The notes: generated from the sequence alone by a model not told the origin. Shown: positions 1 through 38,524, numbered from the stretch's first letter. The stretch: 64,000 nt of DNA from Candidatus Gottesmanbacteria bacterium RIFCSPLOWO2_01_FULL_43_11b (GCA_001780985.1 MFJV01000001.1:158980-222979), one strand, 5' to 3'. Made by a program: numbers and translations.

Positions 1-1276
<1,276 letters not shown>

Positions 1277-1280
<4 letters not shown>

Positions 1281-1540: not shown

Positions 1541-1542
1541 AA

Positions 1543-2832: not shown

Positions 2833-2835
2833 AAT

Positions 2836-3674: not shown

Positions 3675-3679
3675 ATAGG

Positions 3680-3889
3680 TTAGTAATTGCGTCTTCCTGG
3701 ATGCTTCAGTCTTCGTTTGAGTTCTCTCTTTTTTTCTTTTCGGATTTCAGCAGGTTTTTGATAAAATTCTCTTTTTTTTAAATCCTGCAATACTCCTTCA
3801 GCTAAAACTTTGCGGGTAAATTTTCTGATAAGCGAATCGGAAGTATCTCCCGGTTGCGCTTTTACAAACACCATATGATTAAAATACAC
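3680..3889 (-). CDS. rpsU: 30S ribosomal protein S21
   Basis: 69-aa basic ORF with LIRKFTRKV..REFYQKPAEIRKEKKRE, a bS21 pattern. Confidence 0.85.
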   Translation of the reverse strand: MYFNHMVFVKAQPGDTSDSLIRKFTRKVLAEGVLQDLKKREFYQKPAEIRKEKKRELKRRLKHPGRRNY

Positions 3890-3895
3890 ACCTCC

Positions 3896-4216
3896 TTACA
3901 ACTTCCTCATCTTGTCAACGTTTCCGAGTATATGTATATGCATGTGATCGATAACTGCTGCGCCTTTACCGTTGTTGACTAAACGATACCCCATAATGTT
4001 CTGCTCTGCAATAACCTTTTTAATTGTTTTGACGAGATGCATCAAAATGTCCTCGTCAGCATCGGTCAATTGATCAATATGTTTTTTGGGTAAAACCAAA
4101 AAATGTACCGGTGCTTGAGGATGAATATCTGGAATTACCAAACAATTTTCATCCTCATAGATAGGTTTTGACGGAAGTTCTTTTGCAATAACTTTACAAA
4201 AAATGCAGTCGTTCAT
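3896..4216 (-). CDS. HIT-family (histidine triad) nucleotide hydrolase
   Basis: CIFCKV N-terminus and HMHIHILG histidine triad. Confidence 0.85.
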   Translation of the reverse strand: MNDCIFCKVIAKELPSKPIYEDENCLVIPDIHPQAPVHFLVLPKKHIDQLTDADEDILMHLVKTIKKVIAEQNIMGYRLVNNGKGAAVIDHMHIHILGNVDKMRKL

Positions 4217-5040
4217 ATTTTTTCTATCGCCTCAATAATTTCCAGTAATGGTCTTTTACTTGGTCGCATGTCAGGATTTTTACTGCTTCCGTTTAATACC
4301 ATATGGCGACTAGCGTGAAGAAACCAAGTCGCCTCGGGTTCATCTTTTTTTAATGTATCATAAAGGTTGGTGAGATCAATCTCCTCTTTGGGCAATGATT
4401 TAATACGTAAATATCCTTTCTTCGGATCTTTACGAACGACAATGACGTACCCCATTTTTTGTGCAAGGTGCACTGCTTCATCATTGATCGTTTCCAATCC
4501 AAGGCCTTTCCCCCATTTTGTCGTAAATTCCTGACCTTTTTCTTTAATATCTTTCTCAGCCCACACTTTGTTTTGAAATAATTTATAGATTCCGTCAAGC
4601 GCTTTCATTCCAAGTTCTACGATTTGAATAGGATTATCCGCATAGAGAAGTCGCCAACCGTCGATCTGTGATACTAACCCCATGTTCCAAAAGTCAGCGG
4701 TCGGATTTGGGAAAAAAACTTCACGAAAATGGTCTATTTCATTAACCACTGCGCAAAGCCTTTCAAGTGCAGGGTCTGCACCGTGTTCCCGTTTGACCTC
4801 TTGATATATAAGAAGTGCTGCACAGGTATCCGCATCAGTCTGGTGATGGTCAAATTTTCCAAATGCCGTGTCAACGTGCAAAATATTTGGGTCACTGTCA
4901 GGATCTTTATTTTCTAATGATTTCCCTGCAGGAACAAATGCAAGACTCGCTTCCTCCCATCCTGGCAAGAAGGTCTTAACAAGCCAAATCGATGTTATAG
5001 CATCCAAATCCGGCCCAATATGCGCTACGATCGTCTTCAT
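4213..5040 (-). CDS. DHH-superfamily phosphoesterase-like protein
   Basis: HIGPDLDAITS (DHH motif I/II-like) and FDHHQ (DHH motif III). Confidence 0.55.
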   Translation of the reverse strand: MKTIVAHIGPDLDAITSIWLVKTFLPGWEEASLAFVPAGKSLENKDPDSDPNILHVDTAFGKFDHHQTDADTCAALLIYQEVKREHGADPALERLCAVVNEIDHFREVFFPNPTADFWNMGLVSQIDGWRLLYADNPIQIVELGMKALDGIYKLFQNKVWAEKDIKEKGQEFTTKWGKGLGLETINDEAVHLAQKMGYVIVVRKDPKKGYLRIKSLPKEEIDLTNLYDTLKKDEPEATWFLHASRHMVLNGSSKNPDMRPSKRPLLEIIEAIEKI

Positions 5041-5082
5041 CGACTAAGTATACTGTTTTGGAGATTTGAGAACAAGTGGTTT

Positions 5083-5562
5083 CTATAACAGATCTATAGC
5101 CTTTTTAAGACCATTCCTTAAATCTACAAGCATAAGGGTCACCTCATAATTATGGACCCAGTTATTAGACAAATTCCGTACCTGGTTTTGGTACACTCTC
5201 TCAGACTCTGGAGATTCATCCACACGGAGTATTCGTTCTAGGGCATTGACAAAATCTTCCTTTTTCATTTTATGTTTTGGATGAAGTTTAATTCCAAAAG
5301 TCTCTATGTCTTCCCGATTTATTTCTTTTTGAGGGCTCACCGGCGGTTTGGTAAAAAATTCAGCCTCACATTCATTGCCACTTAGTAAATTCGACATTGC
5401 CTGTGCAAAGATCTTTACTGACTCAATACGGCGTAATTTTCCATTACCCATTTCGGGAAAGTATTTAAGTACTGTAACAGGATTTGGTTTTCCCGAAATT
5501 GCCTCCCGTGCTATTTGCCATAAACTACTCAAACCACCTTCGTTTCCTGGTAAGCGTGCCAT
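5083..5562 (-). CDS. hypothetical protein
   Basis: 159-aa ORF in an otherwise empty interval. No motif recognised. Confidence 0.45.
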   Translation of the reverse strand: MARLPGNEGGLSSLWQIAREAISGKPNPVTVLKYFPEMGNGKLRRIESVKIFAQAMSNLLSGNECEAEFFTKPPVSPQKEINREDIETFGIKLHPKHKMKKEDFVNALERILRVDESPESERVYQNQVRNLSNNWVHNYEVTLMLVDLRNGLKKAIDLL

Positions 5563-5684
5563 ATGAGGCGGATTCTAGTACTCCACGTTCTCTCTGTCAA
5601 ATTTAGTACGCTTGAGCAAAAAGGAAATCGGTGAAAAACGCTTCTACCGTAACGAGCTTCGATCTATCGATAAATCGAAGTATT

Positions 5685-6065
5685 TTATTTTCGTAATTTG
5701 CTAATTTTATCAAGTGCTCTATTAACCTTATCCCAAAACACTTCCATCTTTTCCTCATGTATCAACTTTTCTAGAATCCGCTTTACGCCCTCCCCTCCTT
5801 TATCCAACCAATTTCCTACTCTGTTAATCGTTGAAGTGCTCACATGAAGTATAAAGTGTATATCTTCATAGCTGTATTCTTTTTGTATCATAAGAGCAAT
5901 CGCTAATCTTTTTGCCAACATGACTCGTTCTGTTTTCGTAAAAAAATCGTAGAAAAAATCCTTCGCTTCTGATTGAGATCGAATTGCACCTAACACCCAC
6001 AAAAAATCATCTCGAATTGAGTAATAGACATCTTTATGAATCGGATTACGAGAAATTTGTGTCAT
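5685..6065 (-). CDS. TrpR-like DNA-binding protein, YerC/YecD family
   Basis: 126 aa. TERVMLAKRLAIALMIQKEYSYEDI..VSTSTINRV is the YerC/YecD helix-turn-helix pattern. Confidence 0.75.
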   Translation of the reverse strand: MTQISRNPIHKDVYYSIRDDFLWVLGAIRSQSEAKDFFYDFFTKTERVMLAKRLAIALMIQKEYSYEDIHFILHVSTSTINRVGNWLDKGGEGVKRILEKLIHEEKMEVFWDKVNRALDKISKLRK

Positions 6066-6124
6066 TGCGTTCTACTTTCATCTATCGATAGATGAAAGTA
6101 TTTTATAAGGAAAGTCAACGACTA

Positions 6125-7594
6125 TCAATACGCTTGGGCGAAAAGCCAGCGGTGGGTAGCGGGTTTGCCGCAGTGAACACACGTTCCCTTTTCTTCTTTC
6201 GGCACCTGCCTGCCGGCAGGCAGGTCTAAGGGTAAACAACGGTTTGAAGCTTTGGTTTCTGCTTTAATTTTTGTTTCGCACGAGGCATCCTCACACCAAA
6301 ATGCGGAAATAAATCCCCGCTCCCCCGCCATAATCTTTTTAAAATGATCATACGATTCTACCGTATGTGTATGATCCAGAGTAAATTTCTTGTGAGTTTC
6401 CAATAAATTTTGTTGTATCGTCTCTAACATGCCAGAAATTTCATCGATACTAACTTTCTTTTTTTGCATTGTATCGCGAGCAACAGCAGTAACTATTCCT
6501 TCTTCCGCTTCCTTATCACCAATCTCAAGTCGGATCGGCACACCCCGGACCTCCCATTTATTAAATTTAAAGCCTGCACTTTCCCCATCTTTATCATCGC
6601 ATTTGACGCGAATCCCTATTTTTTTCAGCGCCTCTCTTTGTGCTATTGCATATTTTATGGTTTTAGGGCTCGATCCAGGAATAGGAATAAGGATCACCTG
6701 AATAGGTGCGATATTTGGAGGCATAATGAGCCCTTGATCGTCTCCGTGCGCCATGATGAGCCCGCCGATACTTCTTGTGGAGAATCCCCAACTGTTTTGC
6801 CACGGATAGAGCGGCTGTCCTTTTTCATCCTGCACAGTCCAATGAAATGCTTTTGCAAAATTTTGACCTAAATCGTGTGACGTACAACCTTGAAGCGCCT
6901 TACCATCCGGCATCAACATTTCAAAGGTATACGTTTTCTTAGCACCGGCAAATTTTTCCGATTCGCTCTTAACACCTGCAACACCGTAGAGAGCGAGAAG
7001 ATTCTGGTACGTCTCTTTGTACATATCGAGTGCCCAACGAACCTCGGAAACCGACTCTTTGTGAGTATTATGAGCGCAGTGTCCTTCCTGCCACAGAAAT
7101 TCACTCGTTCGTAAAAAGAGATACGTTCGCTTCTCCCATCGAACAATGTTATTCCATTGATTGATGCGGATTGGCAAATCTCTGTAGCTTTGAGTCCAAC
7201 GTTTGTACATTTCATACATAATCGTTTCACTGGTCGGCCGCACCACTAAGCGTTCTTTGAGTTCTTCTCCGCCAGCAAAAGTCACCACAGCCATATGAGG
7301 AGCAAATCCCTCTACGTGTTCTTTTTCAAGATTAAGGAATTTTTCCGGTATAAAGAGAGGAAAATACGCATTCTCCACTTTATGAGCTTTAATAAGTGGA
7401 TCCATGTAGTGTTGAATTCCTTCCCATAGCGCGAATCCATACGGACGAATAACCATACACCCCTTTATCGGCGCGTAATCGGCAAGTTGGGCTTTCAAAA
7501 TAACGTCTGTATACCAATCCGATAGATTGTCGCTTTTTTTCTTGAGCTCTTTCTTTTCAAATTGCTTTTGCATATTAGTAAAGTTTTCCTCCAA
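6125..7594 (-). CDS. proS: proline--tRNA ligase (archaeal/eukaryote-like type, C-terminal zinc module ending in Y)
   Basis: 489 aa with class II aaRS motifs. The C-terminus CVHCGKPATHRWLFAQAY is typical of this ProRS type. Contains the DLPAGRQ palindrome insert. Confidence 0.92.
   Translation of the reverse strand: MEENFTNMQKQFEKKELKKKSDNLSDWYTDVILKAQLADYAPIKGCMVIRPYGFALWEGIQHYMDPLIKAHKVENAYFPLFIPEKFLNLEKEHVEGFAPHMAVVTFAGGEELKERLVVRPTSETIMYEMYKRWTQSYRDLPIRINQWNNIVRWEKRTYLFLRTSEFLWQEGHCAHNTHKESVSEVRWALDMYKETYQNLLALYGVAGVKSESEKFAGAKKTYTFEMLMPDGKALQGCTSHDLGQNFAKAFHWTVQDEKGQPLYPWQNSWGFSTRSIGGLIMAHGDDQGLIMPPNIAPIQVILIPIPGSSPKTIKYAIAQREALKKIGIRVKCDDKDGESAGFKFNKWEVRGVPIRLEIGDKEAEEGIVTAVARDTMQKKKVSIDEISGMLETIQQNLLETHKKFTLDHTHTVESYDHFKKIMAGERGFISAFWCEDASCETKIKAETKASNRCLPLDLPAGRQVPKEEKGTCVHCGKPATHRWLFAQAY
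6204..6225. repeat. 22-bp perfect palindrome acctgcctgccggcaggcaggt (copy 1, inside proS)
   Basis: Read directly from the sequence. It is self-complementary, and the same core occurs at 24939 and 37006. Confidence 0.95.
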
Positions 7595-7910
7595 TCATTG
7601 CATCATCTTTATCGGGAACAATCAAGATGCACTCGCCATCTTCGTCCGGTACACCCAGTGTCAGGCACTCCGAAAGAAACGGTCCGATTTGGCGTGGTGG
7701 GAAATTTACGACGCCCAATACTTTTTTCCCAACTAATTCATCTTTTTTATAATGTTTGACTATTTGGACGCTCGATCGTTTCTGCCCAATCTCCGGGCCA
7801 AAATCAATCGTGAGCTTATACGCAGGCTTACGCGCCTCTGGAAAATCTTCGACTGCAATAATTTTTCCTACCCGAATATCTAATTTTGCAAAATCATCAT
7901 ATGTTGCCAT
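7575..7910 (-). CDS. csaA: tRNA-binding domain protein (CsaA/Trbp111-like)
   Basis: 111 aa. FAKLDIRVGKI..AEDFPEARKPAYKL.IDFG is an EMAP/CsaA OB-fold pattern. Overlaps the proS start by 20 nt. Confidence 0.85.
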   Translation of the reverse strand: MATYDDFAKLDIRVGKIIAVEDFPEARKPAYKLTIDFGPEIGQKRSSVQIVKHYKKDELVGKKVLGVVNFPPRQIGPFLSECLTLGVPDEDGECILIVPDKDDAMIGGKLY

Positions 7911-7930
7911 AATTGTCAGCTCCTTTCCAC

Positions 7931-8080
7931 AAAAAAACCGTTCTCCTTCATAAGGGTGAACGGTTCGTCCACGGTACCACCTTATTTGATTCTTAATTCA
8001 AGCTATCACGGGCATTCCCGTTTCTGTTCTTAGCAGAACCGCTTGTCCCGTTCGGAGCGGGACTCAAACGCGTTTCAATA
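7931..8080 (-). promoter_or_regulatory. T-box riboswitch leader with intrinsic terminator, upstream of csaA-proS
   Basis: The minus strand contains aauaAGGUGGUACCGUGG (T-box sequence, 7969..7983). A terminator hairpin (aaccgttc..gaacggtt plus U7) follows at 7931..7965. A short Stem I hairpin gucccg-CUCCGAA-cgggac (8045..8063) has a loop that could present a CCG(A) proline specifier. Confidence 0.7.
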
Positions 8081-8113
8081 CTCCATGTAGTCTACCTTGA
8101 TCTGTTGTCCTTG

Positions 8114-8842
8114 TCAATTATCATTACCCTGTCCCTGGCCTTGTCCCTGGCCTTGCCCTTGTCCCTGGCCTTGTGATCCCATGCCTTGAGGATTATTATC
8201 ATTGCTATCATTTTCTTCTTCCAAATCCTCATCGTCGGTCTCCGTAATTTTTTCGAGTTCTTCAATTGTTTCTTCAATCGTTTCCTGGGTATCGGAAATT
8301 TCTTCCTGAATCGTGTCTTCTGTTTCGGGCTCTTGAATTATCGATTGCGTGGATGTTGGCGTAGGTGTCGACACAACGATTTGTGGGGTAAAAAAGGGTG
8401 TGGGCGTGGGGATGGGTGTTGGCATTTGTTGGGGTCTACTGGTTATTTCAGTTCTTTGTTGCTCGAGTTCTTGGGCAACTGTCTTGAGTGTTACCAGATA
8501 GGTTTGCGCAAGCTGTTTTTTCGCAGTTCTATTTGGCGCTCTGTCAATAACAGCTTTGGTTACCGCAACTTGCTTCTCTAAGTACGGCAATCCTTCAATG
8601 GATTGTTTATCCGATAGCAATCGTTTAACCTCCCCAAATCGCCGCTCTGTATACTTCACGTTAAGCGCACCGCTTGCCGCATAGGAAGGTTTTGCTAAAA
8701 ATAACAGTGTCGATTCAAGGGCAAGTTTCGTTGGATACAAGACATTCCCTGGAAGAGCATTCCAGGAAGCAACGATAAGAACACTTGGGACGGCAAAGAG
8801 GAGTAAAAATCCCCACGTAAAATAATCCAAGATTTTCCGCAT
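8114..8842 (-). CDS. membrane-anchored hypothetical protein with acidic low-complexity tail and terminal (GQ)n repeat
   Basis: N-terminal TM helix, PTP-rich linker, acidic stretch, and GQGQGQGQ encoded by 12-bp tandem repeats at about 8130..8180. Confidence 0.6.
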   Translation of the reverse strand: MRKILDYFTWGFLLLFAVPSVLIVASWNALPGNVLYPTKLALESTLLFLAKPSYAASGALNVKYTERRFGEVKRLLSDKQSIEGLPYLEKQVAVTKAVIDRAPNRTAKKQLAQTYLVTLKTVAQELEQQRTEITSRPQQMPTPIPTPTPFFTPQIVVSTPTPTSTQSIIQEPETEDTIQEEISDTQETIEETIEELEKITETDDEDLEEENDSNDNNPQGMGSQGQGQGQGQGQGQGQGNDN

Positions 8843-8843
8843 A

Positions 8844-9899
8844 TCAGCCTCGCACTAATCTAAGAATATCATTAATGGAAATCAGGAGAATGAGCGCAAA
8901 CAGAATGACCATGCCGATTTGGTGCGTGGATTTTTCAAACGCGGGTTTAATGCGCCTTCCCAGTATTTTTTCCAAAAACACAAAAGCAAGTCTTCCTCCG
9001 TCAAGGGCAGGAATAGGCAAAACATTGAGAACGGCAAGATTAAGAGAAAGAATGCTCATAAACTCAAGGACAGCTAACAAACCAAATTGGACTGCTTGAC
9101 CTGTTACCTGCGCGATACCAATTGGTCCGGCAACATCTGCTTGCAGTGGCTGCAATGTAATCAGTCTCCAAAATAGAATACCCAGGGAACCAAGCATGTC
9201 CCGACCCCGTAGAAGATTAATTTCTAATGATTTAATAGGTGCAATGGAAATTGGATAAGTCTTTTTTTCGAGGTCTGATATAGCAACCCCCATCGGTCCC
9301 TGACCTTGCGGATATTCTTTTCGAGGGGTCACCGATACTTGAAATTCTCTATTTTCGCGGATAACTGTTAGGGTAACTGCCTGCCCTGCAAGTGACTTTG
9401 TTGCATCAATGAGATCGCTTGGTTTTGTAATTTCTTTATCATCGAGTTTTGCTATCACGTCATTTTCCATAAGTCCCGCAGCCGCTGCCGGTGTTTCCTC
9501 CAACACCCGCTCTATGTGCACTCTTCCCGAAGGCTCCATCACTCCCTGCGTTAAAAGATATGACGTAATTCCAACTGCAAGGAAAAAGTTCATTGCAACA
9601 CCTGCAAGAAGTATCGCTGCCCGCTGTTTTTTGGTCTTTTGCCAAAAAAGAACTTTACCTTTTTGCTGGCCTTTCTCTTCGTCATCTTCTCCCGCAAGTT
9701 TGACAAATCCACCGATCGGAAGCCAGTTAACCGAATACATTGTTCCTCTTACTTTCTTTCCAAAAATCCGCGGCGGGAGTCCCAATCCGAATTCTTCAAC
9801 ATCCACTCCAAAAAAACGTGCAACGAGAAAATGCCCCAGTTCGTGGACAAGGACAAGAATGCTTAAGATGACAAAAAATGTTACGGCAGTGAGGATCAT
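8844..9899 (-). CDS. rseP: RIP metalloprotease RseP (site-2 protease, M50)
   Basis: HELGHF zinc motif in the first TM, a central PDZ-like region, and a C-terminal LPIPALDGG motif. Confidence 0.88.
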   Translation of the reverse strand: MILTAVTFFVILSILVLVHELGHFLVARFFGVDVEEFGLGLPPRIFGKKVRGTMYSVNWLPIGGFVKLAGEDDEEKGQQKGKVLFWQKTKKQRAAILLAGVAMNFFLAVGITSYLLTQGVMEPSGRVHIERVLEETPAAAAGLMENDVIAKLDDKEITKPSDLIDATKSLAGQAVTLTVIRENREFQVSVTPRKEYPQGQGPMGVAISDLEKKTYPISIAPIKSLEINLLRGRDMLGSLGILFWRLITLQPLQADVAGPIGIAQVTGQAVQFGLLAVLEFMSILSLNLAVLNVLPIPALDGGRLAFVFLEKILGRRIKPAFEKSTHQIGMVILFALILLISINDILRLVRG

Positions 9900-9908
9900 A
9901 CTTTTGTA

Positions 9909-9981
9909 TTGTCATCCCGGGCTCGACCCGGGATCCCTCTTTTTCAAATACTGGATTCCGGCTCAGGGGCCGGAATGACAA
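9909..9981. repeat. 73-bp MITE-like intergenic element with ttgtcat..atgacaa termini and two internal hairpins
   Basis: ttgtcatcccgg ... ccggaatgacaa terminal inverted repeat. Internal hairpins are cccggg-ctcga-cccggg and attccggc-tcaggg-gccggaat. A related 35-bp element sits at 51505. Confidence 0.6.
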
Positions 9982-9986
9982 GAATA

Positions 9987-10550
9987 CTAAACCTGTAGTA
10001 ATTCCGCTTCCTTACGTTCCCCAATCGTATCGATTTCTGCAATCATTTCATTAGTGAGTTCCTGAACTACTTTTTCGCCGTGTTTTCGTTCGTCTTCCGA
10101 AATAGTCGCGTCTGATTCTAGTTTTTTAAGGTGTTTCATCGCTTCTGCCCGTACTTGACGCACCATTATGCGTCCTGCTTCAAGTTTTGTACGTGCGAGC
10201 TTAATGTACTCTTGCCGGCGTTCCTCAGATAACGGGGGAAGTGTAATACGAATAATCTCTCCGTCGACGACCGGTGTAAACCCTGCATTTGCTTCCTGTA
10301 ATCCCCGTTCTATTTCAGCAATAATTGAGGGATCAAATGGCGCAATCACAATTGTTTTGGCCTCCATGGTTGTAATTGTCGCTAGTTCCTTAACTTTAAG
10401 TTTTTGCGATCCGCCATAGACGGAAATGATTATATTTTCAACAAGTGCTGATGTAGCACGACCGGAGCGAATTGAGGAAAGATCCGTATGCGTGACCTCG
10501 ATGGCTTTTTTCATCTGGTCACGGGCTTGGTTCGTAACAGGATCGATCAT
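9987..10550 (-). CDS. frr: ribosome recycling factor
   Basis: 187 aa with a conserved RRF pattern (LSSIRSGRA, ..PLSEERR..). Confidence 0.92.
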   Translation of the reverse strand: MIDPVTNQARDQMKKAIEVTHTDLSSIRSGRATSALVENIIISVYGGSQKLKVKELATITTMEAKTIVIAPFDPSIIAEIERGLQEANAGFTPVVDGEIIRITLPPLSEERRQEYIKLARTKLEAGRIMVRQVRAEAMKHLKKLESDATISEDERKHGEKVVQELTNEMIAEIDTIGERKEAELLQV

Positions 10551-11011
10551 TTATCTAATCCTAAAGCAATTCGACTGAATTTAGCAACTGCGATGTTTTC
10601 TCCGACTTTGGCGACGGTTTGTTTGACAAAATCTCCTATTGTCACCTTTGGATCACGGATATATTCTTCTTTGAGAAGTTCCGTGATGTTTTTGGGGTTC
10701 ATGGAGGCAACTTGTAAACAAATCTCGTGAGCAAGATGCTTAAATTCATCAGTTCGTGCAACAAAATCCGTCTCACAACGGAGTTCGACAAGAACACCAA
10801 TTTTACCATTTGCATGAACGTATGACTCAATAATCCCCTGTGATGTTTCTTTCCCTTCTTTCTTAGCAGCTTTCTCAAGCCCTCGTTCTGTGATGAGTTT
10901 CACAGCTTTTTCGAAGTCACCCTTTGCATCCTCAAGTGCCTGCCGGCAGTCAGAAACACCGGCTTGTGTTTTTTCTCTAAGTTTTTTTATATCATCAAGT
11001 TTTACTTGCAT
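10547..11011 (-). CDS. tsf: elongation factor Ts (short form)
   Basis: The UBA-like N-terminus IKKLREKTQAGVSDCRQALE starts at the internal ATG 11011. The longer track ORF (to 11113) adds a K/R-rich extension that overlaps rpsB and is probably not translated. Confidence 0.88.
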   Translation of the reverse strand: MQVKLDDIKKLREKTQAGVSDCRQALEDAKGDFEKAVKLITERGLEKAAKKEGKETSQGIIESYVHANGKIGVLVELRCETDFVARTDEFKHLAHEICLQVASMNPKNITELLKEEYIRDPKVTIGDFVKQTVAKVGENIAVAKFSRIALGLDK

Positions 11012-17568: not shown

Positions 17569-17611
17569 GAAGAGGTTAGGTTCTTTAAAAGAGGGCGGAA
17601 ATTGGAAAATT

Positions 17612-17755
17612 TAAAGCGTGTGGACCAGCCCCTCGCGAGGAGCTGGTATACGAGGAAGGGGAAAATCGAATAGCCCGCCAGTCGGCGGATAAATCTGCGG
17701 ATACCCCTTGGTAGCGCTCTCTACCACAACAATAGACAGAAATGACTATTGAGGA
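17612..17755 (+). promoter_or_regulatory. glmS ribozyme/riboswitch
   Basis: aA|GCG cleavage-site context at 17615/17616. P1 hairpin gaccagc..gctggt. Conserved core strings ACGAGGA and AUCGAA..UCGGCGGAU. Sits directly upstream of glmS. Confidence 0.75.
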
Positions 17756-17778
17756 GCCCGTCTCTCTTTCTAAACTTC

Positions 17779-19551
17779 ATGTGTGGAATATTTGGCTACG
17801 TTGGTCCTAGCCCTCATGGTGCAAAGATAGTTCTTGAAGGTCTCAAACGACTTGAATATCGCGGTTACGATAGTTGGGGAGTTGCTGTTGTACCTGCTTC
17901 AAAGGGTAAAATTGTCGTAAAGAAAAAAGCCGGAAGAATAGGCAAAGCTAGTGTTTCTGATATGCCAAAAGGGTCTGTTGCGTTCGGGCATACCCGCTGG
18001 GCAACCCATGGAGGAGTTACCGATGTTAATGCACACCCTCACCTTGACTGCACAGGAAATCTTGCTGTCATTCACAATGGTATTTTTGAAAACTATGAGA
18101 GTATAAAGCAGGATCTTATTAAAAAAGGGCACCGTTTTATCTCCCAAACAGATACCGAAGTTATCGCCCACCTCATTGAAGAATATGCAAAGACCATGAT
18201 GTTAAGTAAGGCAGTGCAACGGGCGTATAACGAAATGGAAGGTCTTAACGCATTCATAGTTATCCAGACAAAAGAACACCTCCTCCTTGGGGTAAGAAAT
18301 GGGTCACCCTTAGTCGTCGGATTCGGAGATCCGGAAAATTATTTGGCAAGTGATGCTGCAGCGCTCATTCCCCATACCCGGCAGGTTCATTTTCTTGAAG
18401 ATGATCAAATGGTAATTGTTGGAACTGATCAGGTAAACATATTTAACGCAAGAACCGGTGAACGCATTCGTCCGCTTAAACAGAAACTTACCTGGTCAGC
18501 AGAGCAGGCAGAAAAAGGAAAATTCCCTTATTTCATGCTGAAAGAAATTTATGAACAGCCCGGGCTTATTTCAGAAATTGCCGGAGAATCAACGATCCAA
18601 GCCAAAAAAATTGCGGAGGTTCTTAAAAACGCACATGGCGCCTATATCGTTGGCTGCGGAACTGCCGGATATGCTGCTCTTGCTGCTCAATATCTCTTTT
18701 CAGCCATATCAAACAGACACGTTAACTCTGTTATTGGCAGCGAATTTGGCTACCTCCAAAATTTTCTCGTGAAAAGAAGTGCCGTACTTGCCCTTTCACA
18801 ATCCGGCGAAACCATGGATATTCTTGAGGGAGTCAAGAAAGCCAAAGACAAAGGTGCAAAAATTGTTTCTTTGGTTAATGTCGTCGGATCCTCGCTTTGG
18901 CGGTTATCAGATGTAAGACTCCCAATTGGTGTAGGGCCGGAGAAAGGGGTCGCATCTACCAAAGCATTCATCGGGAAACTTACCCATCTCATACTTCTCT
19001 CTTACGCAATGATAGGCAAAATTACCAAGGGTCAGCGGATACTCACGCGGGCTGCAAAAGCAGCAACCGAGGTTCTCAAAGAGCAGCGGGTGAGTAAAAT
19101 AATGAAACTTGCAAAAAAACTCAAAAATACGGAACATATTTTTGTTATCGGGAGAGGGCTTTCATATCCTGCGGCGCTTGAAACAGCGCTAAAAATTAAG
19201 GAAATTTCCTATATCCATGCCGAGGGCTTGGCCGCAGGGGAACTCAAACACGGCCCACTTGCGCTTGTGACGAAAGGCATTCCCTGCATCGTATTTGCAC
19301 CCAACGATGAAACACAGGGAGCAAATCTTGCGGGAGCCATGGAAATGAAAGCACGAGGTGCGTATATTATCGGGATCTCACCCAAAAAGCATGAGGTTTT
19401 TGATTATTATCTGCCGGTTAAAGACGTGGGAGAGGCAACAATTATTCCCAATGTCATCGTTGCCCAGCTTCTGGCGTACTATTTAGCAATAGAGCGCGGC
19501 TTCGACCCCGATATGCCGAGGAATCTAGCAAAAAGTGTAACAGTAAAATGA
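17779..19551 (+). CDS. glmS: glutamine--fructose-6-phosphate aminotransferase
   Basis: Starts MCGIFGY (Ntn Cys) at ATG 17779, contains two SIS domains, and ends ..AKSVTVK. Confidence 0.93.
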   Translation: MCGIFGYVGPSPHGAKIVLEGLKRLEYRGYDSWGVAVVPASKGKIVVKKKAGRIGKASVSDMPKGSVAFGHTRWATHGGVTDVNAHPHLDCTGNLAVIHNGIFENYESIKQDLIKKGHRFISQTDTEVIAHLIEEYAKTMMLSKAVQRAYNEMEGLNAFIVIQTKEHLLLGVRNGSPLVVGFGDPENYLASDAAALIPHTRQVHFLEDDQMVIVGTDQVNIFNARTGERIRPLKQKLTWSAEQAEKGKFPYFMLKEIYEQPGLISEIAGESTIQAKKIAEVLKNAHGAYIVGCGTAGYAALAAQYLFSAISNRHVNSVIGSEFGYLQNFLVKRSAVLALSQSGETMDILEGVKKAKDKGAKIVSLVNVVGSSLWRLSDVRLPIGVGPEKGVASTKAFIGKLTHLILLSYAMIGKITKGQRILTRAAKAATEVLKEQRVSKIMKLAKKLKNTEHIFVIGRGLSYPAALETALKIKEISYIHAEGLAAGELKHGPLALVTKGIPCIVFAPNDETQGANLAGAMEMKARGAYIIGISPKKHEVFDYYLPVKDVGEATIIPNVIVAQLLAYYLAIERGFDPDMPRNLAKSVTVK

Positions 19552-23099: not shown

Positions 23100-23711
23100 G
23101 TGATTGCCGAAATTATCTTTGATCTTGAGACGCAAAAATTGTTTAGTGAAATCGGAAGTTTTAATCCGAGTAAGTTGGGCGTGTCTATTATGTCCATGTA
23201 TGTGCGGGAAGTTTCTGAAAATCAGGAGGAGCTTAACGGCAAATTGTTAAGCTTTTGGGAAAATGAGCTTGAAAAATCGTGGGAAATATTTAAGAAGGCA
23301 AGGAGAATCATCGGTTTTAATTCAATTAAATTTGACAGTGAAGTCCTCAAACCGTATGCGCCGGTTACGTTTTCTCGTCTCCCCCACTTTGACATACTCG
23401 CGTATTTGCGGGAGAAACTTGGTCATGGTGTAAGTTTAGATGCACTTGCCACGGCAACATTAGGCCGGGAAAAAACTGAGGTAGGAACAAAAGCTGTTGC
23501 GTATTGGCAGAGTGGCAAGCCCGAAGACCTCAAGAAACTCCAAGCGTACTGCGAAGCTGATGTGCTGTTAACTCGTGATGTTTATGACTACGCAATTAAA
23601 AACAAAATGCTCAAATACAGAGACAAATGGAATACACTCCGATCTGTTACGGTAGATTTTTCGTATCCGCAAGAGGTACTGGATGCATCGCGGCAGATCG
23701 GGCTGTTTTAG
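23100..23711 (+). CDS. RNase H-fold DEDD 3'-5' exonuclease-like protein
   Basis: GTG start. Motifs are ExoI IIFDLET, ExoII GFNSIKFD and ExoIII YCEADVLLT. Confidence 0.68.
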   Translation: MIAEIIFDLETQKLFSEIGSFNPSKLGVSIMSMYVREVSENQEELNGKLLSFWENELEKSWEIFKKARRIIGFNSIKFDSEVLKPYAPVTFSRLPHFDILAYLREKLGHGVSLDALATATLGREKTEVGTKAVAYWQSGKPEDLKKLQAYCEADVLLTRDVYDYAIKNKMLKYRDKWNTLRSVTVDFSYPQEVLDASRQIGLF

Positions 23712-24885
23712 TCGATCTATGGAGGAGTACTCCGATAAGTATTGGTATAATGGGAAGCACTCGAAGCCATAACCGCGTCACAGCAATTTCGTCTCCAAAC
23801 TGCAGGAAAATGTAAAGCAAAATAAATCCTGCAACTCGAAATACGCTTATCACAACCGACTGTTCAAGTAATAAATGATATTTATTCTTCCATCCTCCGG
23901 GAGATGCATCAAGCACACGATAAACCTCAAGTGTCAGAGCATTCACATAAAAGGCCGCTGTCATTCCTAAAACAAGTATATACACCCATCCGCCAAAAAT
24001 AGTATCGAATGATCCCAATGAATACACTGCGATAACGGTGCCTATTACTCCTATCCAAAACCCATACCGATACCGTTTGAGAAATGCAATCGAGACAATG
24101 CTGCCGATTGCTCCCAAAGCGGAGGCGACTGTTAATGCAAGTCCAAGTGCCGCTTCCCCTCTCAAAAGTATGTACAGCAAGATTCCGGATACTGTTGACA
24201 ATGCAACGTCGAAAAATCCCATAAGCCCTTGCTGCCACAGCACAAGACCCCATCGTGTACTTCGACGGTGGTGTATTACGTGTCTATACGAAAATTGCGG
24301 TGGATCATGAGAAGGAAGTTTCTCTATAAGAATGACCGCTGCAGTCAAAATGGTAAACACGATGAGAAACAAAATCGCGTAACCTGTTGAAATCGATCCT
24401 GATAACTGTCCGATGCCGGCAATTATCCAGCCGCCCAAAACCGGCCCCAATGCGCTGGCAAAATTTATGAGCGCAAGATTCCAACCGATATACTCCGCAC
24501 GTCTTCCGGAATGGGTAAGTATATACTGATTGAGGTTAAACGCGGACCAGTAGTTACCGCCGGAAAATCCGCCTAAGATACCTAATGGCACTAAATACGC
24601 AATGCTCCTTTCCTTGAAGAAAAACAGTAGGAAATAATACAGGGCGCTTGCCAGAAAACTTATTTTCATCATAAGCCCTGATGAAATTTTCCGTAGCGTT
24701 ATTCCTGAAAGTCCGTAGAAAAATGCGAATGATGTAAATGAAACGATGTTATAAAAAATTGTGGTTTTAAGGTCGCTATGGGCAAAGAAAAACACGCTGA
24801 CAAACACCCCTGCAAGGGCGTAGGAGAGAAAGTTTAAAAATTGGATGATTATGAGCTTACGCTCTTCGTTAGATAAATTCCGCAT
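23647..24885 (-). CDS. MFS transporter
   Basis: About 12 predicted hydrophobic helices. The track ORF begins at a TTG (24906), so ATG 24885 is more likely. Confidence 0.78.
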   Translation of the reverse strand: MRNLSNEERKLIIIQFLNFLSYALAGVFVSVFFFAHSDLKTTIFYNIVSFTSFAFFYGLSGITLRKISSGLMMKISFLASALYYFLLFFFKERSIAYLVPLGILGGFSGGNYWSAFNLNQYILTHSGRRAEYIGWNLALINFASALGPVLGGWIIAGIGQLSGSISTGYAILFLIVFTILTAAVILIEKLPSHDPPQFSYRHVIHHRRSTRWGLVLWQQGLMGFFDVALSTVSGILLYILLRGEAALGLALTVASALGAIGSIVSIAFLKRYRYGFWIGVIGTVIAVYSLGSFDTIFGGWVYILVLGMTAAFYVNALTLEVYRVLDASPGGWKNKYHLLLEQSVVISVFRVAGFILLYIFLQFGDEIAVTRLWLRVLPIIPILIGVLLHRSTKTARSAAMHPVPLADTKNLP

Positions 24886-24938
24886 ATTTAGCCCATTGTA
24901 ACGCAAAAAACATTTTTCTCAAAGGTACCGAGCCGCCG

Positions 24939-24958
24939 CCTGCCTGCCGGCAGGCAGG
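24939..24958. repeat. 20-bp perfect palindrome cctgcctgccggcaggcagg (copy 2, disrupting the msrB 5' region)
   Basis: Read directly from the sequence. Removing exactly these 20 nt joins KGTEPP to [17 protein letters not shown] in one frame. Confidence 0.95.
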
Positions 24959-24994
24959 TTTAGTGGAAAATACTACAACAACCACGATCCCGGA

Positions 24995-25258
24995 ATGTAT
25001 GTTTGTGTTTCGTGTGGGAATAAATTATTCAGTAGCGACACCAAATACGATAGCGGCACCGGCTGGCCGAGTTTTTGGAAAACTTCGGGAAAAGTAAAAA
25101 CGAGTGAGGATCATTCTATGGGAATGATTCGCACCGAGGTTATGTGCGGAAACTGTAGCGCACACCTCGGACATGTCTTTAATGACGGCCCTCGAGACAA
25201 AACCGGTCTACGCTACTGCATTAATTCCCTCGCCCTCGATTTTCGACCGAAGGAGTGA
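24995..25258 (+). CDS. msrB: peptide-methionine (R)-S-oxide reductase MsrB, 5'-disrupted (possibly a pseudogene or truncated form)
   Basis: CVSCG..CGNC zinc site, GWPSF, and the RYCINS catalytic Cys region. The conserved upstream KGTEPP segment lies in another frame and has no start codon. Confidence 0.75.
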
Positions 25259-27966: not shown

Positions 27967-28663
27967 CATGTTTATTCCCGGTTTTCACCGGGGCATGGAC
28001 TATATCTTCATCCGCAAAAATTGACGTTTTTCTGGATGAACCGAACCAATTATTTTTGCAAAATCGTTGTAAGACCTTGCCGAAATATAAAATCTCCAAT
28101 AATTCGGATCAACCGTTTTACTAGGATTATGAATTACTCCACAATGAATACTTAATTCTTCTAAATAGTGTTTTACTTGTAAAAGATCTTGCTTGTCCTT
28201 TTGACAAAAATACAAGTAATACCTCACCGAAGAATTTTTAGCAATACCACCTTCTGCATCGAAATAACCTCGGATATATTCGATTTTGTCGTTCTTAGAA
28301 CGTATTTCAATATCTCGTAAAATCTTTTTCGGAAATTCTACTATCCAAAGATTACGAGACTTTCCTTCTTTATATATCCAAGCTCCAACATGTAATTTAC
28401 GAATTCCTATTTTTAGAAACTGCGCAAATTCTCTACTGTTAGTTGCTATTCGATAGGTAGATTGCCGACTGGTACCATCGTGAGCCATTCCCAATAAATA
28501 TGGTTTCGTCATATGCGGCGCCAACGTGTAGTCTCTACGGAGTCCCCGATATAATCAGGGTTCCCTCGGTATTCCCATATGTTGATTATAAACCAAGCAT
28601 GAAGGGTTCACCGATACAGTTGGATTTTCCCATACCCTTACGGATATGGGTCGCAACAAACTT
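27967..28663 (-). mobile_element. group I intron (697 nt) in the 16S 3' region (inside the 1492R primer site), carrying a homing endonuclease ORF
   Basis: It splits AAGTCGT|AACAAGG. The 5' exon ends in U and the intron ends in G. Core strings AGAGACUACACG (28525..28536) and GAUAUAGUCC (27997..28006) flank the ORF. Confidence 0.8.
28000..28524 (-). CDS. LAGLIDADG homing endonuclease (intron-encoded)
   Basis: 174 aa with two LAGLIDADG-like motifs (YLLGMAHDGT and YIRGYFDAEGG). The TAG stop lies inside the intron core element GAUAUAGUCC. Confidence 0.82.
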   Translation of the reverse strand: MAPHMTKPYLLGMAHDGTSRQSTYRIATNSREFAQFLKIGIRKLHVGAWIYKEGKSRNLWIVEFPKKILRDIEIRSKNDKIEYIRGYFDAEGGIAKNSSVRYYLYFCQKDKQDLLQVKHYLEELSIHCGVIHNPSKTVDPNYWRFYISARSYNDFAKIIGSVHPEKRQFLRMKI

Positions 28664-29056
28664 ACGACTTAGTCCCCATCGCTGAGTTCGGCTTCGACCG
28701 TAAAAACGGCCTTCAGCCGCCCCCAACTTTGTTGGCTTGACGGGCGGTGTGTACAAGACCCGAGAACGTATTCACCGCAGCCTTCTGATCTGCGATTACT
28801 ACCGATTCCGACTTCATGAGGGCGGGTTGCAGCCCTCAATCTGAACTGAGGCGAAATTTCAGGGATTTGCTTGCCATTACTAGTTTGCATCCCATTGTTT
28901 TTCGCCATTGTAGGGTGTGTGTTACCCAGGGTATAAGCGCCGTGCTGACTTGACGTCGTCCGTTCCTTCCTCCCCGATACATATCGGGGCAGTCTCCGAT
29001 GACACTTATAACATCGGATACGGGTTGCGCTCGTTCTCCTACTTAAAGGAACACCC

Positions 29057-29087
<31 letters not shown>

Positions 29088-29202
29088 GCTGTGATACCAT
29101 CCTTGCGGATAGCCTACTATTTCTAGCGGGTTAAAACGGTACCATGTCAAACCCTGGTAAGGTTTTTCGCTTTGTCTCGAATTGAACCACACGCTCCACC
29201 GG

Positions 29203-29234
<32 letters not shown>

Positions 29235-29625
29235 TAATCTTGCGATCGTACTCCCCAGGCGGTCTGCTTAACGCGTTAGCTTACGTCAGTCCCCCTTGCG
29301 GCGGACCAACTAGCAGACATGCGTTTAGGGCTAGGACTACGCAGGTCTCTAATCTGCTTCGCTCCCCTAGCTTTCGTGTCTCAGCGTTAGGTGTGGGCCA
29401 GAAAGGTGCCTTCGCCTTTGGTGTTCCTCATGATATCAACGCATTTCACTGCTTCACCATGAGTTCCCCTTTCCTCTCCCATCCTCAAAGACTCCCCATC
29501 TCGAACCCAACGCCGAGGTTAAGCCTCGGGCTTTCAGGTTCGATGCGGAAATCCGCCTACACGACACTTTACGCCCAGTGAATCCGGATAACGCTTGCAC
29601 CCTACGTATTACCGCGACTGCTGGC

Positions 29626-29880
29626 CCGCCACAATTTTTTGTAGCGAACTTTGGACTATATCATCACCCCACAGATTGGGGGTCTCGCGTGTAGTCTCTG
29701 AGGACTCTCCCCGCCATCCTTTCATTATAAATGAAGGCGGAGGTTGCCTGCTGATTGTCTTGATACATGCTTGCTTTCGCAAAACTATTTCGCGGACATA
29801 TCAAGGTGTTCCAGCATATAGCGAGATTTTCTTTTACCGTATTACTACAGTAACTACGCACCATCCGATTACATCGAATC
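29626..29880 (-). mobile_element. ORF-less group I intron (255 nt) in the 16S 515-region
   Basis: It splits AACTACGT|GCCAGCAG. It has the same AGAGACUACACG (29688..29699) and GAUAUAGUCC (29653..29662) core strings as the other intron, with a short P8-like hairpin between them. It starts after U and ends in G. Confidence 0.75.
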
Positions 29881-30286
29881 ACGTAGTTTGTAGGTGCTTA
29901 TTCGCCAAACCTCGATGATCTGGCAAAAGAGGTTTACATACCGAAATACTTCATCCCTCACGCGGCGTCGCTCGGTCAGGCTTTCGCCCATTGCCGAATA
30001 TTCCTAGTTGCTGCCATCCGTAGATGTATAGCCCGTGTCTCAGTGCTATTGTGGGGGGTCGCGCTCTCACGCCCCCTACCCGTCATCGCCTTGGTAGGCC
30101 ATTACCCCACCAACAAGCTGATAGGAGCAAGGCCGCTCTTCCTCCGTGCCGTTACGCACTTTGATCTTACGACCTCATGGAATATTACCCCGTCTTTCGA
30201 CGAGCTATGTTCCAGAAAAAGGTACGTTCCTTGCTTATACTCACCCGTCCGCCACTAATCTTTCGACCGTTCAACTTGCATGCCTA

Positions 30287-30329
<43 letters not shown>

Positions 30330-30470
30330 AAAAAAAATTAACGTCCCGGATATCATGATTCGCTTACGCTCATCACCATCCGGGTCCGGCTGATGTCGCA
30401 ACGCGACATAATAGCCGGATTCCTATCACCATTCGTTTGTCAAATGTTAATGTGCGACTCTCAATGAGCG

Positions 30471-36520: not shown

Positions 36521-38524
36521 TTATTTTATATCTTCTTTCTTCCATGCTGCAAATGTGCAGTTGGGGTAGTTTGAACAACCGTAAAATGTTTTGCCGCGGC
36601 GGGTCTTTTTAATCACAATATCTCCCCCATCCCTCGGGCATTTCATATCAATTTTTTCTGCAAATTGGCGCGTATATTTGCACGCTGGAAAGTTACTGCA
36701 GGCGATAAATTTCCCGTATCTTCCCACACGCAAAACGAGCTGATGACCGCAGTCCGGGCACTTTTCATCAAGTAATTCAACCGGCGTTTTTACTTTTTCT
36801 GCCTGATCGAAAGCTGCGTCAAGCTCTTTGGCAAAAGGCGTATAAAAATCTCTTATTACAGGCACCCACTCTACTTGCCCGTCGGCAATAGCGTCTAAGT
36901 TATCCTCCATAGTTGCGGTAAAGGGGATATCAATAATATTCGGAAAATATTTTATTAGGAAATCGTTGACCAAAAAGCCCAATTCAGTTGGTTTCAACTT
37001 TTTTCCCTGCCTGCCGGCAGGCAGGTCTTCCCGCACTATGTACTGGCGTTCCTGAATTGTTGAAATAACCGGCGCATAGGTAGAAGGGCGTCCGATCCCT
37101 TTTTCCTCAAGCGTTTTAATTAGCGAAGCCTCATTGTAGCGAGGGGGTGGATTTGTAAAATGTTGTTCTGGTATGGCTTGGTTAAATCCTATTTCTTGCC
37201 CCTGTGTAACCTCGGGAAGAACAACTTCCCCGTTATCTTTTCCGAGAATTTTCAAAAACCCCTCAAATTTTATAACCGATCCCTGGGCTTCAAAAAGATA
37301 CGTATTGCTACTTGTAATTTTTATCGTTGTGGAATCAAAAATCGCTTCAGCTGCCTGGCTTGCGAGCGCCCGTATCCAAATAAGCTCATAGAGTCTGATA
37401 TGGTCACGGTTAAGTTCTGCGCTGTCGATCGTAAGCTGAGCGCCTTGTACAGTTGCATCTGTGGGTCTAATTGCTTCGTGAGCCTCCTGGGCTGATTTTG
37501 ATTTTGTTTTGTATCGACGCGCCTCTGCCGGTACATACTCTTTGCCGTATTCTTTTTCTATATAATCCCGCGCTTCACTAATAAATTTCTCAGACAGGTT
37601 AAAACTGTCGGTTCTGTGGTAGCTTATCAAACCCTCTTCGTAGAGTTTTTGAGCAAGTTGCATTGTGCGTTTCGCAGAAAAGTATAATCTTCGGCCCGCA
37701 TCCTGCTGGAGTGTGCTTGTCGTATAGGGAGGGGCCGGAAACCGTCTCACTTCTTTTTTGTCTACTGAAGAGACGATATAGGGTGATTTTAAATCTTTGA
37801 TTATGGTATCTGCTGCGTTTTGGTCAGTTATTGTCGAGGAAGCCGTAGTATATTTTCCGTCAAAAAGATCAAATTCAAGATTTTTTTCATACAAAACACC
37901 CTCTTTGGAAACCAGGTGTGCATGAATTTCCCCGAATACCCCTTCAATTGTCCAGAACTCTTCTTTTTGAAATTTTTCTATTTCTCTTTCCCGCTCAACG
38001 ATAAACCGTACGGCGACTGATTGAACCCTTCCTGCTGAAAGCCAACGGCGGGAAAGTTTCTGCCAAAGGAGTGGGGACAATTTGTATCCAACAAGTCGAT
38101 CTAATATCCTTCTAGCCTGCTGCGCGTTTACGAGTTTTTGGTCAATTTCACGCGGATGCGTTAGCGCTTCGGCAATCGCGTGTTCCGTTATCTCATGGAA
38201 TACTATTCGAGTAAACTTCGACTTTTTTAGTGTGTCCGCAACGTGCCAGGCAATTGCCTCTCCCTCCCGATCCGGGTCGGTTGCAAGAATAATCGAATCT
38301 GCCTTCTTTGCTGCGTCTTTGAGTTCTTTGGCGCGCTTTGCTTTCGCACGCGGGGTGACATATCTGGGGGTAAAGTCATGATCGACATCAACCCCGAGTT
38401 CGGATTTCGGCAAATCACGAATATGCCCCATCGATGCTTCAATTCGATAATCTTTACCGAGAAATCTCGACAGAGTTTTAGCTTTTGTTGGTGATTCAAC
38501 AATAATGAGATGATAATTTTTCAT
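36521..38524 (-). CDS. topA: DNA topoisomerase I
   Basis: Toprim start LIIVESPTKAKT, active-site region SYHRTDS, and two C-terminal zinc ribbons. Contains the DLPAGRQ palindrome insert. Confidence 0.93.
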   Translation of the reverse strand: MKNYHLIIVESPTKAKTLSRFLGKDYRIEASMGHIRDLPKSELGVDVDHDFTPRYVTPRAKAKRAKELKDAAKKADSIILATDPDREGEAIAWHVADTLKKSKFTRIVFHEITEHAIAEALTHPREIDQKLVNAQQARRILDRLVGYKLSPLLWQKLSRRWLSAGRVQSVAVRFIVEREREIEKFQKEEFWTIEGVFGEIHAHLVSKEGVLYEKNLEFDLFDGKYTTASSTITDQNAADTIIKDLKSPYIVSSVDKKEVRRFPAPPYTTSTLQQDAGRRLYFSAKRTMQLAQKLYEEGLISYHRTDSFNLSEKFISEARDYIEKEYGKEYVPAEARRYKTKSKSAQEAHEAIRPTDATVQGAQLTIDSAELNRDHIRLYELIWIRALASQAAEAIFDSTTIKITSSNTYLFEAQGSVIKFEGFLKILGKDNGEVVLPEVTQGQEIGFNQAIPEQHFTNPPPRYNEASLIKTLEEKGIGRPSTYAPVISTIQERQYIVREDLPAGRQGKKLKPTELGFLVNDFLIKYFPNIIDIPFTATMEDNLDAIADGQVEWVPVIRDFYTPFAKELDAAFDQAEKVKTPVELLDEKCPDCGHQLVLRVGRYGKFIACSNFPACKYTRQFAEKIDMKCPRDGGDIVIKKTRRGKTFYGCSNYPNCTFAAWKKEDIK
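37006..37025. repeat. 20-bp perfect palindrome cctgcctgccggcaggcagg (copy 3, inside topA)
   Basis: Read directly from the sequence. Translated in-frame as DLPAGRQ, the same frame as in proS. Confidence 0.95.

Follow-up and report, generated by a model that had tools for sequence, protein, structure and literature searches.

The msrB gene in the window, the stretch of 64,000 nucleotides of DNA from Candidatus Gottesmanbacteria bacterium RIFCSPLOWO2_01_FULL_43_11b that was analysed as a whole, is very probably a dead remnant, broken by the genuine insertion of a 20-nt palindrome that we call PAL. PAL itself behaves as inserted, mobile-like DNA, and identical copies were found far beyond this genome.

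A palindrome divides the conserved N-terminal motif of MsrB

Translation of the window gives ten codons of MsrB in a frame of their own at 24909-24938. These are followed by a perfect 20-nt palindrome at 24939-24958 (CCTGCCTGCCGGCAGGCAGG, with half-sites CCTGCCTGCC and GGCAGGCAGG), after which the body of the gene resumes at 24959, in the frame of the ATG at 24995, and continues until a TGA stop at 25256-25258. The features of the locus are as follows.

23647-24885, minus strand: divergent MFS transporter gene (PF07690), the start of which adjoins the msrB remnant
24870-24908, plus strand: region of the 5' truncation breakpoint, between the in-frame TAG at 24870-24872 and the remnant
24895-24922, minus strand: promoter-like site of the MFS gene (TTGAGA, 16-nt spacer, TACAAT), a consensus match only, 10/12
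24915-24938, plus strand: upstream msrB remnant FLKGTEPP, a tblastn HSP in a frame different from that of the body; N-I precedes it at 24909-24914
24939-24958, unstranded: PAL in msrB, between the P and F codons of GTEPP/FSGKY; an exact 20-nt gap in the DNA alignment with L121, the contig of the best MsrB homologue
24959-25258, plus strand: downstream msrB body, FSGKYY...FRPKE and TGA, SelR profile positions 17-116, from frame translation and tblastn
24995-25258, plus strand: 87-aa ORF, the only ORF initiated by ATG, GTG or TTG, starting at an internal conserved Met

When three MsrB homologues were compared with the window by tblastn, exactly two pieces were returned, 24915-24938 in frame +3 and 24959-25255 in frame +2. 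The first piece, FLKGTEPP, is 100% identical to homologue residues 13-20 and the second is 78-81% identical to the homologues. A sequence-only reading of this DNA had proposed that the palindrome adds a net 20 nt and so breaks the msrB frame, and that deletion of exactly 24939-24958 rejoins the canonical MsrB segment. The two tblastn pieces and the 20-nt gap against L121 bear out the first proposal, and the second is supported by profile matches of the PAL-deleted protein, which gives E = 9e-48 with SelR (PF01641) and 156 bits with TIGR00357 (cut-off 113). Over the alignment, this protein is 70-81% identical to 13 Microgenomates-type MsrB proteins. No single continuous msrB ORF with a start codon and a contiguous GTEPPFSGKY was found at the locus, the motif being split over two frames. 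Because PAL lies in an invariant motif of MsrB, the boundaries of the insert are known to the base, and the expected empty allele is GAGCCGCCG joined directly to TTTAGTGG.

The same reading had taken the palindrome to be an insertion and not ancestral coding sequence, and comparison with relatives agrees. The motif GTEPP[F/G]SGKY is contiguous in 120 of the 120 closest MsrB homologues, in which it starts at residue 15-36, and none of the 120 has an insert at the PAL site. All are 120-145 aa long. They are up to 83% identical to the protein of the window, and the few that are named are Gottesmanbacteria or Curtissbacteria MsrB. An empty msrB allele was not recovered from the collections searched, where the closest MsrB is only 83% identical, and a degenerate metagenome scan for a 13-residue stretch of this MsrB gave no match. 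The best homologue of the MutS-like neighbour protein is 56% identical, and neither its contig nor that of the best MsrB homologue showed synteny with the window. The msrB locus had no Rfam match. An AlphaFold model of one MsrB homologue had a pLDDT of 58, too low to use.

Downstream of 24959 the body has both CxxC zinc motifs, GWPSF, HLGHVF and the catalytic RYCINS, and across its 100 codons there is no stop, frameshift or lost invariant residue. The columns that are invariant among the homologues are kept at 61 of 66 positions, and the five losses all fall in the missing N-terminus. Since the body is without any decay, either the gene must have been inactivated very recently or some selection still acts on the remnant.

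The 5' end of msrB is missing

About 7-20 N-terminal codons of msrB are gone, start codon included, and the missing residues comprise the invariant L, E, Q, Y and C of K-LTPEQYNIC. The KGTEPP frame was checked from the TAG at 24870-24872 to the motif and holds no ATG, GTG or TTG, as had been noted from the sequence; the region 24870-24908 likewise lacks a start codon, and it does not resemble the N-terminus of MsrB. By tblastn, the N-terminal 12-20 residues of MsrB had no match anywhere in the window, and no second msrB was found there. Even after removal of PAL, profile positions 1-10 (Pfam) and 1-21 (TIGR) are missing.

Alignment of the DNA with L121 shows the window to be shorter by 23 nt upstream of the motif. 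The ATG of L121 aligns to CGC at 24902, directly after a TAA at 24899-24901 that closes the frame of the msrB body, and the KGTEPP codons are identical to those of L121 at 17 of 18 nt. The promoter-like site of the MFS gene, identified by its match to a sigma-70-like consensus, covers the FLK codons of msrB and ends 10 nt before the MFS ATG at 24885. With 23 nt lacking and 20 nt inserted, the net change is -3, so the body frame is open from 24902, and the only start-like codon that it contains from there is a CTG inside the hairpin. Compensating indels (-23 + 20 = -3) were considered and rejected as evidence of function, since the open frame destroys GTEPP and has no ATG, GTG or TTG. Two indels will sum to a multiple of 3 with a chance of 1/3, and we treat the sum as a coincidence.

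The msrB gene would then be a recently inactivated remnant with at least two lesions. The first would be the exact 20-nt insertion of PAL, splitting GTEPP/FSGKY and shifting the frame, and the second the loss from the 5' end of the start codon, the LTPEQY segment and one Cys codon, after which the remnant would have come to adjoin the promoter region of the divergent MFS gene. We infer the order of the two lesions, with PAL entering before the 5' end was eroded by deletion beside the MFS promoter. Judged from its reading frames, the locus could not give rise to a functional MsrB by ordinary decoding.

A functional N-terminally truncated enzyme is unlikely

The sequence-only reading had left two possibilities, a pseudogene or a truncated product made from the ATG at 24995. 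The pseudogene is clearly favoured, because the 5' defect exceeds a missing start (L, E, Q, Y and C are absent as well) and because the MFS promoter-like site overlaps the remnant. A functional MsrB of 87 aa expressed from this ATG is unlikely, even though the ORF is intact, scores 130 bits against TIGR00357 (cut-off 113) and keeps both CxxC motifs, GWPSF, HLGHVF, the catalytic Cys of RYCINS and every invariant residue within its span. It covers only positions 30-116 of the 116 in SelR, lacking 1-29 with the invariant GTEPPFSGKY, and positions 40-126 of the 134 in TIGR00357, lacking 1-39. The Thr of the GTE motif reportedly contributes to catalysis in the MsrB of N. meningitidis, which counts against an enzyme of this length. 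Short MsrB proteins that naturally begin at the equivalent Met, which would have spoken for a truncated product, were not seen among the 120 closest homologues, none of which is below 120 aa; in them the residue equivalent to the Met of 24995 is internal and conserved, with M in 89 of the 120. The stretch upstream of the ATG, CACGATCCCGGA, has no spaced Shine-Dalgarno-like run, and the 87-aa ORF itself was not found among recorded proteins. From its position in the alignment, the ORF appears to be an accident of an internal Met. As a pseudogene, msrB is ordinary.

PAL enters existing sequence as exactly 20 nt

The exact 20-mer was found at more than 240 loci, at least 120 of them in genome contigs and at least 120 in metagenome contigs, and also in 35 viral contigs. 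The genome records that bear it belong to at least 11 phyla. They include many CPR lineages, Bacteroidota, Omnitrophota, Planctomycetota, Verrucomicrobia and Gammaproteobacteria, together with Bdellovibrionales, 'delta' lineages, Thermodesulfovibrionales, Chloroflexi and Elusimicrobia; Winogradskyella echinorum, Flagellimonas yonaguniensis, Longitalea luteola and Aquiflexum lacus are among the Bacteroidota isolates that carry it. Matches in the cultured phage and plasmid collections were partial and imperfect only. Neither the 20-mer nor the peptides LPAGRQ, PACRQAG and CLPAGR had a match in the literature searched.

Paralogous pairs of empty and filled sites show how PAL enters DNA. In 24 of 24 such pairs exactly 20 nt have been added, with no target duplication and no extra base. 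In a worked pair from the L145 hairpin-repeat family, the loop is CGGTTTTTG when empty and CGGTTTTTG plus PAL when filled. The msrB copy is therefore of canonical size, since all 24 pairs differ by 20 nt. The combination of terminal inverted repeats and a fixed-length target-site duplication that marks a MITE was not found, all 24 pairs being without duplication, and exact 7-nt flanking repeats are present at only 5 of 168 PAL sites. No target motif for PAL was found, the flanking base being only A-rich and T-poor. Hairpin stems flank 12% of PAL sites versus 2.5% of controls; the empty msrB site does not form a hairpin. Nor was a linked transposase evident, no large protein family being recurrent in the neighbourhood of PAL.

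Loci noted for 7-nt flanking direct repeats are L045:773, L080:187, L082:346, L101:1815, L143:3391, L127:1660 and L133:8396; the flanking-repeat loci also include one of 8 nt and one of 14 nt, often within heptamer tandem arrays. Flanking direct repeats of that kind were absent from 1,680 control positions (10 random positions for each of the 168 PAL sites).

The size of the insert bears on the possibility of an assembly or sequencing indel, by which the true insert would be 21 nt (for example TTTT in place of TTT after the hairpin) and the msrB frame continuous. We regard such an error as very unlikely. One additional T after 24958 would indeed give a continuous frame, the remaining coding copies of PAL in the window, those in proS and topA, are +21 nt, and GC-rich hairpins are error-prone in some sequencing chemistries. 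However, an indel is not needed to account for the locus, because 20 nt is the canonical size of a PAL insertion. Even with a continuous frame, msrB would be without a start codon and the conserved N-terminal residues; coding in the window is normally compact (a crude tiling of ORFs covers 89%), and no series of split genes is obvious.

It is more doubtful still that PAL is immobile, a host signal (a protein-binding site, a terminator or a sequence of the uptake type) that arose independently or was held by functional conservation, with the msrB copy incidental. Conservation of the exact sequence across phyla would suit such a signal, as would the fixed position of PAL ∼20 nt upstream of GIY-YIG starts, where an operator or 5'-UTR hairpin would be expected. 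Paralogous empty sites show, on the other hand, that PAL was added to sequence already present, and it interrupts both invariant protein motifs and tRNA-derived sequence. Nested copies exist, in which one PAL has been inserted at the apex of another. PAL has no T-run after it, and prediction gave no terminator-like site at msrB.

Two viral contigs carry related repeats. In L158 a PAL-like unit of 21 nt, CATGCCTACCGGCAGGCAGGC, is repeated in tandem at least 10 times (3916-4142), up to the contig end. L145, with 6 PAL copies, contains at 500-10600 a REP-like hairpin family of the form CCCATCCTTG-loop-CAAGGGTGGG, the loops of which bear different GC-rich palindromes, PAL in one and TCCGCCGCGGCGGA in others.

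Copies within coding genes

Three exact copies of PAL lie in the window (at 6205, 24939 and 37006), compared with 0 expected from 100 shuffles. The two besides that of msrB are as follows.

6205-6224, unstranded: PAL in proS (6125-7594, minus strand), read in frame as DLPAGRQ, net +7 aa
37006-37025, unstranded: PAL in topA (36521-38524, minus strand), read in frame as DLPAGRQ, net +7 aa

These two copies had been described from the sequence as in frame, and alignment with solved homologues confirms it: the proS copy is a 7-residue (21-nt) insertion relative to ProRS 1h4q, and the topA copy is a 7-residue (21-nt) insertion relative to topoisomerase I 6ozw and 4rul. The 7-residue insertions imply that both copies consist of PAL plus one extra base. 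The gene for ribosomal protein S6 (rpsF) in a Daviesbacteria genome (L047) also has PAL in frame and reads ...SDGLPAGRQGEIF..., and the reading in coding copies generally is mostly LPAGRQ.

Most PAL copies are intergenic. In low-GC loci ∼10% of copies are inside ORFs; for loci below 45% GC, 14 of 157 PAL sites are in frame in long ORFs, and the out-of-frame relations account for 3 and 3. Reading through in frame in a conserved protein, as in Rickettsia palindromic elements (RPEs), was found for proS, topA and S6 and not for msrB. Among 294 sites, no other conserved gene broken by a 20-nt PAL was found, the candidates being spurious high-GC ORFs or intergenic. The in-frame copies are selected exceptions, because one extra base is present in them, and the msrB copy is the canonical form of the insertion.

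Other palindromes were seen in the window. An imperfect GC-rich palindrome of 39 nt in fmt (51089-51127), CCCGCCTGCC-19 nt-GGCGGGCAGG, is in frame and reads RLPAPERSDGGQA; each of its arms is one base off a PAL arm, and the palindrome may represent an old copy of PAL in which a further insert is nested. The alignments of fmt with PDB structures end just ahead of it. An intergenic gap at 10935-10954 contains AGTGCCTGCCGGCAGTCAGA, with a 13-nt PAL core, and may hold a decayed copy. A perfect AT-rich palindrome of 28 nt, TACTTTCATCTATCG/CGATAGATGAAAGTA, lies just 3' of proS at 6073-6100 and is unrelated to PAL. Beyond the palindromes, the window has a 16S rRNA gene on the minus strand (28616-30335), interrupted at 29631-29890 by a group I intron, a feature typical of candidate-phyla-radiation (CPR) genomes, and a glmS ribozyme at 17604-17761, upstream of the ORF at 17749-19551.

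The coding copies also bear on the idea that msrB is rescued by programmed recoding, with the ribosome or RNA processing skipping the hairpin so that the full MsrB body is made. A possible route would be a hop of peptidyl-tRNA-Pro from the CCG at 24936-24938 to that at 24947-24949, which is in the body frame and lies 11 nt further on, at the apex of the hairpin. In favour of recoding, the KGTEPP codons have stayed perfectly conserved within their frame, and both Magnusiomyces mitochondria and T4 gene 60 offer examples of the bypass of GC-rich palindromic inserts. Recoding is nonetheless scarcely credible here: the upstream frame has no start codon; the sequence, GAG CCG CCG [PAL] TTT, has no X XXY YYZ slippery site and no stop codon after the take-off site; the codon before TTT is AGG, mismatched to the take-off CCG, and the sole CCG in the right frame is inside the hairpin; PAL is simply translated in proS and topA, where a fixed removal of 20 nt would be lethal; the 294 PAL sites show no excess of otherwise intact genes with 20-nt inserts; and no recoding site is conserved in orthologues, the insert being present in 0 of the 120 closest homologues.

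PAL accompanies a family of GIY-YIG genes within tRNA-gene duplications

PAL is a near-constant companion of a small GIY-YIG nuclease family. Many PAL copies sit in the D-loop of tRNA 5' fragments. These fragments are displaced 5' halves, each followed by an ORF of ∼80 aa for a GIY-YIG protein (PF01541) and then by an intact tRNA, and comparison of the fragment with the intact copy again gives exact 20-nt PAL insertions. The cassette, [5' tRNA fragment + PAL in D-loop]-GIY-YIG-[intact tRNA], was seen in CPR and Bacteroidota, where the tRNA genes concerned are those for Lys, Asn, Arg, Leu, Gly and Ser, and was located at the following positions.

L037: 2100-2480
L156: 490-900
L232: 630-1145
L280: 2430-2815
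L281: 2440-2820
L293: 1400-1900
L295: 1130-1820
L296: 1430-1815

A GIY-YIG gene is present in 21 of 275 PAL loci, and in 13 of those it lies within 150 nt of PAL. The association was also approached blind to PAL, from homologues of one GIY-YIG protein. PAL was found 18-40 nt upstream of the start, within the D-loop of a displaced tRNA 5' fragment, at six of seven independent loci (five exact, one with a single mismatch), and the seventh has a degenerate palindrome beside a 3' tRNA fragment. The six loci with PAL belong to Shapirobacteria, Dokdonia, Colwellbacteria, Wolfebacteria, the isolate Croceiramulus getboli and a recurrent metagenomic lineage, and the taxa of this GIY-YIG clade mirror those of PAL. 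The literature searched held nothing relevant on GIY-YIG together with tRNA and a palindrome. The 64-kb window contains no gene of the linked GIY-YIG family and the cassette was found at none of its three PAL copies, which are therefore orphans.

Removal of PAL at the RNA level, an idea suggested by the tRNA-like contexts, was considered and rejected, there being no support for splicing. With PAL deleted in silico, ARAGORN finds a junction-spanning tRNA at two sites only, L030 and L149, and the other D-loop cases are 5' tRNA fragments beside intact tRNAs.

In the viral contig L149, a complete tRNA-Met(CAT) at 2239-2330 carries PAL where the variable loop lies and is nevertheless recognised by ARAGORN as a tRNA of 92 nt; the PAL hairpin may thus be tolerated as an extra arm. 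Two palindrome insertions within one tRNA D-loop fragment were seen at L253:621-670, L258:572-620 and L293:1400-1480, these being PAL twice or PAL and a variant such as CCTGACTACCGTCAGGTAG. The 124-aa 'GIY-YIG' protein P0247, called at 2501-2875 in L283-L292, is extended at its N-terminus by translation of the tRNA fragment and a PAL copy; this extension is an annotation artefact caused by PAL.

A possible mode of spread

PAL may be mobilised through the GIY-YIG family, a reading that we hold tentatively. The nuclease, or repair of its cuts, could spread PAL in trans, in a manner resembling REP/RAYT. Because each insertion adds exactly 20 nt, duplicates no target site and is not directed to a specific sequence, PAL frameshifts any gene that it hits. 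Canonical insertions would be purged from essential genes and tolerated in msrB; only rare 21-nt versions would survive in the essential genes proS, topA and rpsF, and the canonical 20-nt copy would persist only in a dispensable gene such as msrB. As for its role in the cassette, PAL might inactivate the tRNA half that has been displaced, abolish the target of the nuclease, or serve as an operator or 5'-UTR hairpin.

Taken together, PAL could be the smallest mobile element yet seen in bacteria, a proposal that we make with reserve and judge to fall somewhat short of probable. It would be a perfectly palindromic 20-nt unit that is inserted exactly, makes no duplication, is spread both within genomes and over at least 11 phyla, and serves as the cis element cognate to small GIY-YIG nucleases associated with tRNA genes; the pairing would be like that of REP and RAYT, with a different enzyme. 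On this proposal, msrB would show the mutagenic default (+20, frameshift), and proS, topA and rpsF would be rare +21 survivors to which a 7-residue LPAGRQ loop has been added.

The broken msrB is in effect a natural experiment on PAL, which shows that the palindrome is added DNA, that its native size is 20 nt and that it is mutagenic. Together with the in-frame copies, it points to selection filtering a frameshifting micro-insertion in a reduced CPR genome. Two results are without a match in the literature searched, namely the identical 20-mer in many phyla and viral contigs, and the tight link, tested blind, to small GIY-YIG genes within tRNA-gene duplications. If the nuclease mobilises PAL, the two would form a new type of repeat/enzyme pair, through which core proteins could gain insertions of 7 residues. 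The pair would in that case be a practical hazard to annotation too, giving rise to split genes, false tRNA fragments and GIY-YIG ORFs with spurious N-terminal extensions.

Comparison with known systems

PAL resembles RPE and REP/RAYT in kind, and appears to be undescribed in the literature searched. The RPEs, which Ogata et al. are said to have described in 2000, are reportedly selfish palindromic repeats that insert into protein-coding genes and are tolerated there in frame; they are said to be about 100-150 bp long, to be confined to Rickettsia, and to occur also in intergenic and RNA-gene-derived sequence. PAL is likewise translated in frame (proS, topA, rpsF) and is also found at intergenic and RNA-gene-derived sites. 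It differs in being 20 nt, a length that is not a multiple of 3, in being identical across at least 11 phyla, and in its link to GIY-YIG genes.

The GC clusters, or byps, of Magnusiomyces mitochondria and the insert of T4 gene 60 are frame-breaking hairpin inserts that are decoded by hopping between matched codons. PAL too is a short GC-rich hairpin-forming insert that breaks a frame; however, the flanking codons in msrB are unmatched and there is no start codon, and other PAL copies are translated. The fate of msrB recalls pseudogenes made by insertion sequences or MITEs, in which a dispensable gene is inactivated by an inserted repeat and then eroded by deletion, although PAL is only 20 nt, has no signature of inverted repeats with duplication and encodes nothing.

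T4 SegB is a free-standing GIY-YIG homing endonuclease in a tRNA gene cluster (PMC2330249). In both SegB and the PAL cassette a small GIY-YIG gene is placed between tRNA genes or inside one, and cleavage of tRNA-gene DNA is its presumed means of spread, whereas SegB has neither a 20-nt palindrome nor a displaced tRNA 5' half. No description of the bacterial cassette of a 5' tRNA fragment with PAL, a GIY-YIG gene and an intact tRNA was found in the literature searched.

REP sequences are short GC-rich palindromes (20-40 nt) present in many copies, without target duplication and paired with RAYT transposases; they have a GTAG or CGTC tag, are extragenic and lineage-specific, and their partner is an HUH Y1 transposase (PMC3733652). 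PAL copies similarly lie beside the gene of a small nuclease, the presumed mobiliser. Unlike a REP, PAL is a perfect palindrome that starts with CCTG, carries no tag, is found inside ORFs as well and has the same sequence across phyla, and its recurrent neighbour is a GIY-YIG gene (PF01541) inside tRNA-gene duplications.
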